Shown here piece by piece: positions 1-1,214 of a DNA stretch of 1,224 nucleotides. Source of the DNA: Escherichia coli (GTDB lineage Bacteria; Pseudomonadota; Gammaproteobacteria; Enterobacterales; Enterobacteriaceae); NCBI RefSeq assembly GCF_003334355.1, contig NZ_QOWP01000093.1; one strand, written 5' to 3'. Position numbers and translations under genes: made by a program. The notes below the pieces were generated by a model that was not told the DNA's origin, ran no database searches, and was given only the letters and a program-made list of their open reading frames with translations. The first letter of the stretch is position 1; each line of letters opens with the position of its first letter.

Positions 1-1214
1 GAACTGTCTTGGTCTGCCGGGTTATAACGGTCCCAGTTGAACTTCACCCGCACGCGACCATGTTCGTCGCAGAAGATTTCCTCGCCTGCCGGTCCTGTCA
101 CGACAGCGCTCTGCGGGCCGTCGACCAGCGGTTTCAGCAACGGCTGTGGTCGCCATGTTCTGTCTGCCGGGATCACCGCAAAATGGTTCTCCAGCGCCGT
201 CCCCGCTCCCTGCCGTCCTGGCACCGCCTGTGGCTGTTCGCCGTGCAGTTCACTTGCCACCACCTGCCATTCCCGGTTCAGGTTCGCCTGCGGATGCCCC
301 GTCAGCACAATTCGCCGTCCCGGCCATATCTCCAGCGAGCGGCTCATTCCCCGCGCGGTTTCTGCGTTGTTTCGCCAGCCGTCCATCTGCCAGCGGGCAA
401 AGTTCTGCCCGTGGGCGCTCTTGAAACGTCCGGGGTAGTCATACACTTCATACTGCGTGCGCTGGTAGTCCTGGTGCTGGCCTTCCTGTTCAAAACGTCC
501 GGCCCAGCCGGGGCGTTTAAAGGTGTAGTCTTTGGTCACCACGGAAGAAGGGCGGATTTGTGCGCTGTAGCGGAACTGGCTGATGCAGAGGGTGCTCACC
601 TCGGTACGGGTGTTCGGGTTCCATGGGATTTCAAAAGATTCGGGCAGATGGCGGACTGTGTCGCACAGCACCAGGCTCTGGTCGGTACTTTTGTAAGCAT
701 GCTCCTCATAAAAGAAGATGCCTTCCTCCGCCGCCATCCGGCACAGGAAATCGTAATCAGTCTCACCGTACTGGACACAAAACTCACGGGAAGGATGCGG
801 CTCGCTGAACAGCGGACTCCATTCGGTCACCCCGTTTTCCTGCAACATCGTGCCGAGGATGCTTTTGATGTCCTCGTTCTGGAAGATACGGAAGGTCTGG
901 CGCAGACCGGCACGCCACAGCGGCGGGTGCACCTTCATGCTGTACAGCATCTGGTTTTTGTCGTTCTCCCCCAGTTCAAACCAGGTCACCACGCCTTTCA
1001 CCCGGCGCTGTACTTCATCGCCCTGCCATATCGTCAGGTAGGCCATTTTGTCCAGCACCTGCGCAAATTCAAGGGAGAGAAACTGCTGGCTGACCAGGGA
1101 GAGATCGAGGGAAAAGAGCGAAGAGAGTGACTGGTTCAGATGAAAGGAAACCACCGCAAAAGCATCCGGCGGCAGGCCGTCCACTTCCAGTGTGAAACGT
1201 AATCCGGTTGACAT
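1..1214 (-). CDS. vgrG: Type VI secretion system spike protein VgrG, N-terminal part (gp27-like hub domain plus start of gp5-like OB-fold). 5' end complete, 3' end truncated by the window edge; 404 complete codons visible.
   Basis: Hand translation of the reverse complement from the ATG at 1214-1212 gives an uninterrupted frame to position 3 (no stop in 404 codons). N-terminus: [145 protein letters not shown]... Visible C-terminus: ...[39 protein letters not shown]. This matches the VgrG / Rhs-element Vgr family (Phage_GPD-like N-terminal domain followed by a Phage_base_V-like OB-fold) from memory; no database search was run. The six-frame track does not list this ORF, presumably because it has no in-window stop. 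Confidence 0.93.

Follow-up and report, generated by a model that had tools for sequence, protein, structure and literature searches.

Several VgrG systems have been described with which the present locus can be compared. VgrG1 and VgrG3 of Vibrio cholerae are evolved VgrGs that carry toxin domains. In Escherichia coli the most pertinent case is that of the O157:H7 strain EDL933, which has three vgrG loci: vgrG1 (z0707), accompanied by EagR and rhsF; vgrG2 (z2262); and vgrG3 (z0267), which lies in an island (PMC7216683). The N-termini of the EDL933 VgrGs are conserved and their C-termini divergent (PMC7216683). VgrG1 (z0707) is a protein of 633 aa encoded in a vgrG-EagR(DUF1795)-Rhs island, and its C-terminal domain is represented by PDB 3WIT. 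Modules of the VgrG-Eag-Rhs kind provide the background for the spike and cargo-selection functions considered below (PMC6971182).

The window analyzed here is the whole of a stretch of 1,224 nucleotides of E. coli DNA, the reverse complement of which equals, base for base, the entire 1224-bp contig QOWP01000093.1 of the draft assembly GCA_003334355.1. We number gene positions with the A of the ATG as 0, which places the window at -10 to +1213. Its best DNA matches, at 99.7-99.8% identity over the 1224 bases, were of the O157:H7 VgrG1 locus type in the six complete genomes inspected, and all six of the best-matching loci that were opened proved to be the cusS-adjacent vgrG-DcrB-Rhs module. The window has the start, the ribosome-binding site and the hub of VgrG1 (z0707) but ends within codon 405 and has a substitution of its own, N107T, that is private to it. 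It is not assignable to the cusS locus alone, because the 702-aa vgrG of the RhsE locus (O157 VgrG2, z2262 type), with the same domain order, shares the 1224 bases and is 99.3% identical to the window over -10 to +1213. We consider it highly probable that the window is a repeat-collapsed whole contig of a vgrG head module common to at least two paralogues, the likely continuations of which are canonical spikes.

The partial vgrG frame and its domain layout

The minus strand of the window holds a single open frame, which starts with an ATG at 1214-1212 and runs through 404 sense codons with zero stops in the translation of 3-1214 (Table 1). Bases 2-1 supply the first two bases of codon 405 (TC-, Ser), and the frame remains open at base 1; bases 1-120 hold the codons for residues 365-404. 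Upstream, the GGAGG of the ribosome-binding site occupies 1224-1220, 5 nt from the ATG. The two remaining minus-strand frames are riddled with stops when translated. A plus-strand ORF at 9-1130 (373 aa) was considered and set aside as an antisense shadow of the vgrG frame, its best Pfam match (E 0.068) not being significant. An Rfam search of the window returned no match.

The original prediction, made from the letters of the window, named the gene a VgrG, and curated models agree. The product is identical to NCBI RCQ15772.1/WP_114481285.1, annotated as 'type VI secretion system tip protein VgrG, partial'. The NCBIfam model TIGR03361 (TssI/VgrG), which has a cut-off of 186.35, aligned over profile positions 1-398 of 513 at 404.6 bits, and TIGR01646 (cut-off 121.8) scored 290.5 on the same fragment. 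The Pfam model Phage_GPD matched the hub. With curated models far above their cut-offs, the ORF is a VgrG/TssI type VI secretion spike.

The last 28 residues, which the original prediction quoted as the beginning of the OB-fold, agree exactly with the translation and are encoded by window positions 3-86; they fall at the start of Phage_base_V in complete genes that are 99.8% identical. On the window fragment itself Phage_base_V remained below significance, just the first 30-45 OB residues being present. This domain was placed at 384-450 (model positions 13-75 of 75) in 633-aa genes 99.8% identical to the window, and it is complete over those residues in both the 633-aa and the 702-aa genes, which are 99.3-99.8% identical over the window. 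Domain limits were taken from Pfam and from an approximate VgrS offset. The alignment of Phage_base_V model position 13 to residue 384 extrapolates to an OB start near residue 372, and the published limits of VgrS (head 122-429, OB neck 453-544), shifted by an approximate offset of +93, give a start near residue 360. An AlphaFold2 model of a 633-aa relative, based on a 20-sequence alignment, had a mean pLDDT of 37.8 and a pTM of 0.25 and was unusable for the placement of OB strands.

On these limits the hub is complete, and the cut lies some 30-45 residues past the start of the OB domain, which is roughly 80-90 residues long and ends near 450. The original prediction had put it at the gp27-like to gp5-like junction; it was right that the OB-fold has begun, but the break itself lies beyond the junction, within the OB domain. 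Its statement that the beta-helix and the variable C-terminus lie outside the window also held, given that Gp5_trimer_C occupies 467-560 in full-length relatives (467-560 or 467-576 in the two candidate continuations) while the window ends at codon 404.

In an alignment of 20 homologues, columns 364-450 are almost all invariant. The alignment reaches Salmonella, Citrobacter, Kluyvera and Hafnia, and N107 is invariant in it. The N107T substitution of the window may be a genuine private change, or it may stem from an error in sequencing or from the consensus built over a collapsed repeat.

Table 1. Locations of features in the window, of vgrG copies in the complete genome OW1E2, and of fused derivatives.
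Feature	Location	Strand	Basis or remark
Partial vgrG/tssI CDS, codons 1-404, open at window edge	3..1214	-	Only open minus frame; TIGR03361 E 5.6e-121
5' untranslated leader with Shine-Dalgarno GGAGG	1215..1224	-	Sequence and comparison of two OW1E2 paralogues
gp27-like hub, complete (Pfam Phage_GPD, residues 29-327)	234..1130	-	E 6.1e-75, model positions 3-303 of 305
Hub/OB-fold linker, residues about 328-371	102..233	-	Gap between Pfam domains in full-length homologue; boundary extrapolated
First part of gp5-type OB-fold, residues about 372-404	3..101	-	Phage_base_V 384-450 in 633-aa and 702-aa full-length genes
Private substitution, codon 107 AAC -> ACC, Asn -> Thr	895 (codon 894-896)	-	Differs from all compared loci at gene position 319
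Contig end, gene position +1213	1	.	Followed at +1214 by G (cusS-adjacent copy) or A (RhsE-locus copy)
vgrG, 633 aa (OW1E2)	L001 8011-9912		Adjoins cusS; then DcrB/DUF1795-type gene, PAAR-Rhs gene
vgrG, 702 aa (OW1E2)	L014 20691-22799	-	Between yncH and RhsE core gene
vgrG, 713 aa (OW1E2)	L028 22006-24147		After hcp in T6SS island at tRNA-Asp
P0018, 561-aa cusS-locus remnant	L025 7001-8686; L026 4325-6010		Head fused at about codon 401 to Rhs-repeat fragment, nfrA directly after
P0019			Fused after codon 411 to DcrB-like sequence
P0014			Fused after OB-fold to Rhs tip
P0023			Head fused to Rhs tip
P0005			Fused in beta-helix to methyltransferase

Paralogue boundaries and the ends of the contig

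The sequence of the window is present in 3594 of 5426 complete E. coli genomes, at a median of 2 places per genome. In the complete genome OW1E2 (NZ_CP067245.1) we located three vgrG copies (Table 1). The cusS-adjacent and RhsE-locus copies of this genome differ at -11, -12, -13 and further upstream, and again at +1214, +1222, +1253 and beyond, with just 9 SNPs between them inside -10 to +1213. Window base 1224, at -10, is the last base common to both paralogues before they diverge at -11 to -13. Both ends of the window thus sit on the first paralogue-distinguishing sites, exact to the base (-11 and +1214), and identical distinguishing sites were present in three further genomes (L003-L005). 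This coincidence of both ends with distinguishing sites argues that the continuation is probably plural and that a single one probably does not exist. On sequence grounds, the cut is best taken as an assembly break at a repeat boundary and not as a biological feature of the gene. Note that the original prediction proposed to complete the ORF by reading further 5' of position 1, which is impossible on this record since the window is the whole contig.

The complete genomes suggest that the source strain had two copies. In those examined, the two copies still show 8-9 internal differences; the copies of the source strain are assumed to have been identical over the 1224 bp, or else small bubbles may have been removed by the assembler. 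The T6SS-island copy was tried as a further member of the collapse and rejected: it has 101 mismatches to the window, with a longest exact run of 98 nt, and would therefore assemble separately.

Breaks of the same kind were recovered in other assemblies. A 1263-bp contig (L007) starts at -10 and ends at +1252, just before site 1253, and another contig of 1224 bp is known (P0006) among the 'partial' N-terminal VgrGs; a search for P0006 by exact match gave no hit. These partial proteins form clusters of 2251 and 551 members with many lengths, and their contigs include ones of 1224, 1212, 1077, 1014 and 917 bp. For assemblies made with k = 127, flanking contigs are predicted to start at 1214-127 = 1087. 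A 702-type C-terminal fragment (339 aa) that starts 127 nt before +1214 was found on a metagenome contig named k127, and a 633-type C-terminal fragment (270 aa) with the same starting point was found in 173 blocks of the collection. The 633-type fragment lay at a contig end in 10/10 loci fetched (L015-L024), where it is followed by DcrB and then by a PAAR-DUF6531-RHS gene with various toxin tips. These k = 127 partials of the 633-aa and 702-aa alleles came from other samples only, and the OW1E2 allele of such a C-terminal partial protein is not on record. Overall, draft assemblies of E. coli evidently break often at the repeat formed by the 5' vgrG module.

As a separate observation, the L007 contig is itself a mosaic over its positions 1-1263, being of cusS type at sites 795-899 and of RhsE type at +1214. 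It also has an NPSNQDS variant at 1197-1205 that otherwise occurs in island-type and P0030-type genes.

Likely continuations and alternative readings

Under the explanation we propose, the source would be a short-read draft of an E. coli strain with a T6SS-2-type secretion system. A head module that runs from the ribosome-binding site through the entire gp27-like hub and the linker to the first 30-45 OB-fold residues would be identical or nearly identical in at least two paralogous vgrG genes of this genome, and the assembler would not have extended the contig because the copies diverge at -11 and +1214. One likely continuation is the cusS-adjacent 633-aa vgrG, with genes for a DcrB/DUF1795 Eag chaperone and a PAAR-Rhs toxin downstream; the other is the RhsE-locus 702-aa vgrG, followed by the Rhs core gene. 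Both would be canonical spikes with a hub, an OB neck, a gp5-type beta-helix and a short non-enzymatic tail, free of a toxin domain, and both would carry Rhs toxins. By analogy with known systems, VgrG trimers would cap the Hcp tube, and the divergent C-terminal part, together with Eag and PAAR where these are present, would select the cognate Rhs toxin. The shared head would stem from recombination or gene conversion between the paralogues, with a crossover zone in the conserved OB-fold coding region just past the window edge.

Full-length relatives bear directly on the nature of these continuations. The original prediction held that a canonical VgrG could not be told from an evolved one by the window alone, and we concur; the outside data appear to answer the question in large part, given that near-identical 5' modules lead to canonical VgrGs of 633 aa or 702 aa. 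Full-length clusters with N-termini at least 96% identical comprise a 633-aa form (5758 members) and a 702-aa form (2378, 1885 and further clusters), and no listed protein whose N-terminus is at least 93% identical is longer than 703 aa. In the 633-aa and 702-aa forms the Pfam domains are Phage_GPD, Phage_base_V and Gp5_trimer_C, with no enzymatic or DUF2345 domain, and no Pfam or NCBIfam domain was found beyond the gp5 helix in the near-identical full-length genes (633, 702 and 713 aa). These genes lack what defines an evolved VgrG, namely a C-terminal enzymatic or adaptor domain and a length of more than about 850 aa. Residues 561-633 of the 633-aa form match PDB 3WIT (E 1.7e-37). In related complete genomes, the T6SS and cargo neighbourhood is vgrG-DcrB/Eag-PAAR-Rhs at the cusS locus, vgrG-Rhs core at the RhsE locus, and hcp-vgrG-Rhs in the island.

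The annotation of these neighbourhoods includes disrupted genes. The downstream Rhs gene is frameshifted or has an internal stop by annotation in 4 of 6 cusS-adjacent loci (L002 10421-15282; L009, L011, L012), and the sheath gene tssC of OW1E2 (L028 26381-27856) is annotated with an internal stop. Many of these vgrG-Rhs modules may have lost their function, or errors of assembly may be present in the long Rhs genes.

If the gene were instead single-copy and something else, for instance a gap in coverage or an adjacent insertion sequence, had ended its contig, the window would be a fragment most likely of the cusS-adjacent 633-aa gene. The SNP pattern is nearest to that gene, since the window has 2-3 mismatches to cusS-adjacent copies versus 8-9 to RhsE-locus copies; some complete genomes (H22, H24, H25, H29) have one window-matching place only; and IS elements occur near these loci. 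Even so, unrelated breaks at both -11 and +1214, to the base, would be an extreme coincidence, and other assemblies break at the identical or the next distinguishing site, so that we regard this reading as unlikely. The gene could also be a truncated or fused pseudogene, in which a deletion shortly past the window edge joins the vgrG head to downstream DNA. Derivatives of this type with 98-100% identical N-termini do exist (Table 1), one of them, P0018, in two independent sources (one NCBI genome and one ENA metagenome scaffold). However, the truncated fusions form clusters of 1-7 members, as against thousands for the 633-aa and 702-aa forms, and no deletion is needed to account for the exact coincidence of the window end with the G/A SNP that separates the paralogues at +1214, which makes a pseudogene very improbable here. 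A remnant of the P0018 type was considered as a collapsed copy and discarded: it departs from the window sequence at gene position 1200, before the window ends, and is therefore not one of the branches.

We give almost no credence to the third possibility, that the gene is an evolved VgrG and continues past the window into a C-terminal toxin or DUF2345/TTR adaptor extension. Nothing positive speaks for it. Hub, OB and gp5 beta-helix are the sole domains of the 633-aa and 702-aa forms, the 713-aa T6SS-island paralogue is without an extension, and the listed relatives include no toxin domain in an intact VgrG frame, the Pfam matches to RHS and RHS-tip-type families (PF05593, PF03527, PF22322) and to a methyltransferase (PF08242) belonging to deletion fusions. 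The O157 VgrGs are likewise without an effector domain (PMC7216683). A repeat-collapsed head module with canonical continuations is the reading that we carry forward.

Mosaic paralogues and comparison with known systems

Sliding identity profiles in OW1E2 revealed that the RhsE copy changes its closest relative along its length. Up to about +1173 it is 99-100% identical to the cusS copy, versus about 90% to the island copy in the same part. From about +1374 its similarity to the cusS copy drops, from 89% identity to a point where the two no longer align, and its identity to the island copy is 94-100% over about +1374 to +1573 and 64-80% further 3'. On these profiles the vgrG of the RhsE locus is to be read as a mosaic or recombinant gene, cusS-like in its 5' part and island-like in its 3' part, with the switch between about 1214 and 1374. 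Homology between the cusS and RhsE copies can still be recognised upstream of -11, though at an identity of about 60-83% only, so that the near-identical block looks like a conversion tract set within older homology. The 3' limit of this block is within the OB-fold coding region, and the contig end would mark the beginning of the recombination transition zone. It is conceivable that the invariant OB-fold coding stretch (about 1100-1400) is a preferred site of crossover, with gene conversion keeping unlinked heads identical and leaving the cargo-selecting 3' ends distinct, and with the RhsE gene of OW1E2 as one product; we hold the chances of this proposal to be evenly balanced. The recombination pattern fits the known modularity of vgrG loci and introduces no new principle.

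Outside the window and just 5' of the ribosome-binding site, an AT-rich stretch, CGGAT(C/T)ATTATTCATTTT, was observed at gene positions -34 to -14 (L001 7977-7994 and its equivalent in L014). It is kept in the cusS and RhsE copies, while the flanking upstream DNA is far more diverged. The stretch may have a regulatory role common to both copies or be left over from an older homology.

These patterns have a practical side for the reading of draft genomes. The 'partial VgrG' of this record would be an assembly fragment of a repeat and not a truncated gene, and so would the 'partial' VgrGs of this kind that number in the thousands among public drafts of E. coli. If these entries are repeat fragments, the counting or typing of vgrG genes and Rhs cargo from short-read drafts would consequently miscount copies and could not link heads to tails.

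At the RhsE locus, vgrG diverges from the cusS copy from +1214 onward and resembles the T6SS-island vgrG in its 3' part; the locus is without an Eag chaperone gene, and its downstream Rhs gene is without a PAAR Pfam match. The vgrG of the T6SS-2 island (O157 VgrG3, z0267 type; 713 aa in OW1E2) belongs to the same family and has the same ribosome-binding site, start and domain order, and it is 91.7% identical to the window. Beyond E. coli, a full-length relative aligns over its residues 13-539 to Pseudomonas aeruginosa VgrG1 (4MTK/4UHV/6H3L; E 8.5e-95 for 4MTK) and over its residues 8-541 to Salmonella VgrS (9MLP; E 2.7e-86). Both proteins share the head, the OB neck and the beta-helix spike with this relative, at an identity of about 40-50% as estimated by eye, but differ from it in the C-terminal tail. 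EAEC VgrG1 (6SJL, 841 aa), which has DUF2345/TTR and binds Tle1, is homologous in its hub and OB core (E 5.5e-23); in contrast, the near-identical E. coli genes end at 633-713 aa, without a DUF2345, TTR or enzymatic domain.

That VgrGs in general combine a conserved N-terminus with a variable C-terminus has been published before, and the finding is in this respect an ordinary one on a gene already annotated. Set beside the known systems, the paralogue mosaic illustrates how E. coli diversifies the cargo-selecting end and yet retains one hub in common, as the fit to a single Hcp tube and baseplate demands.
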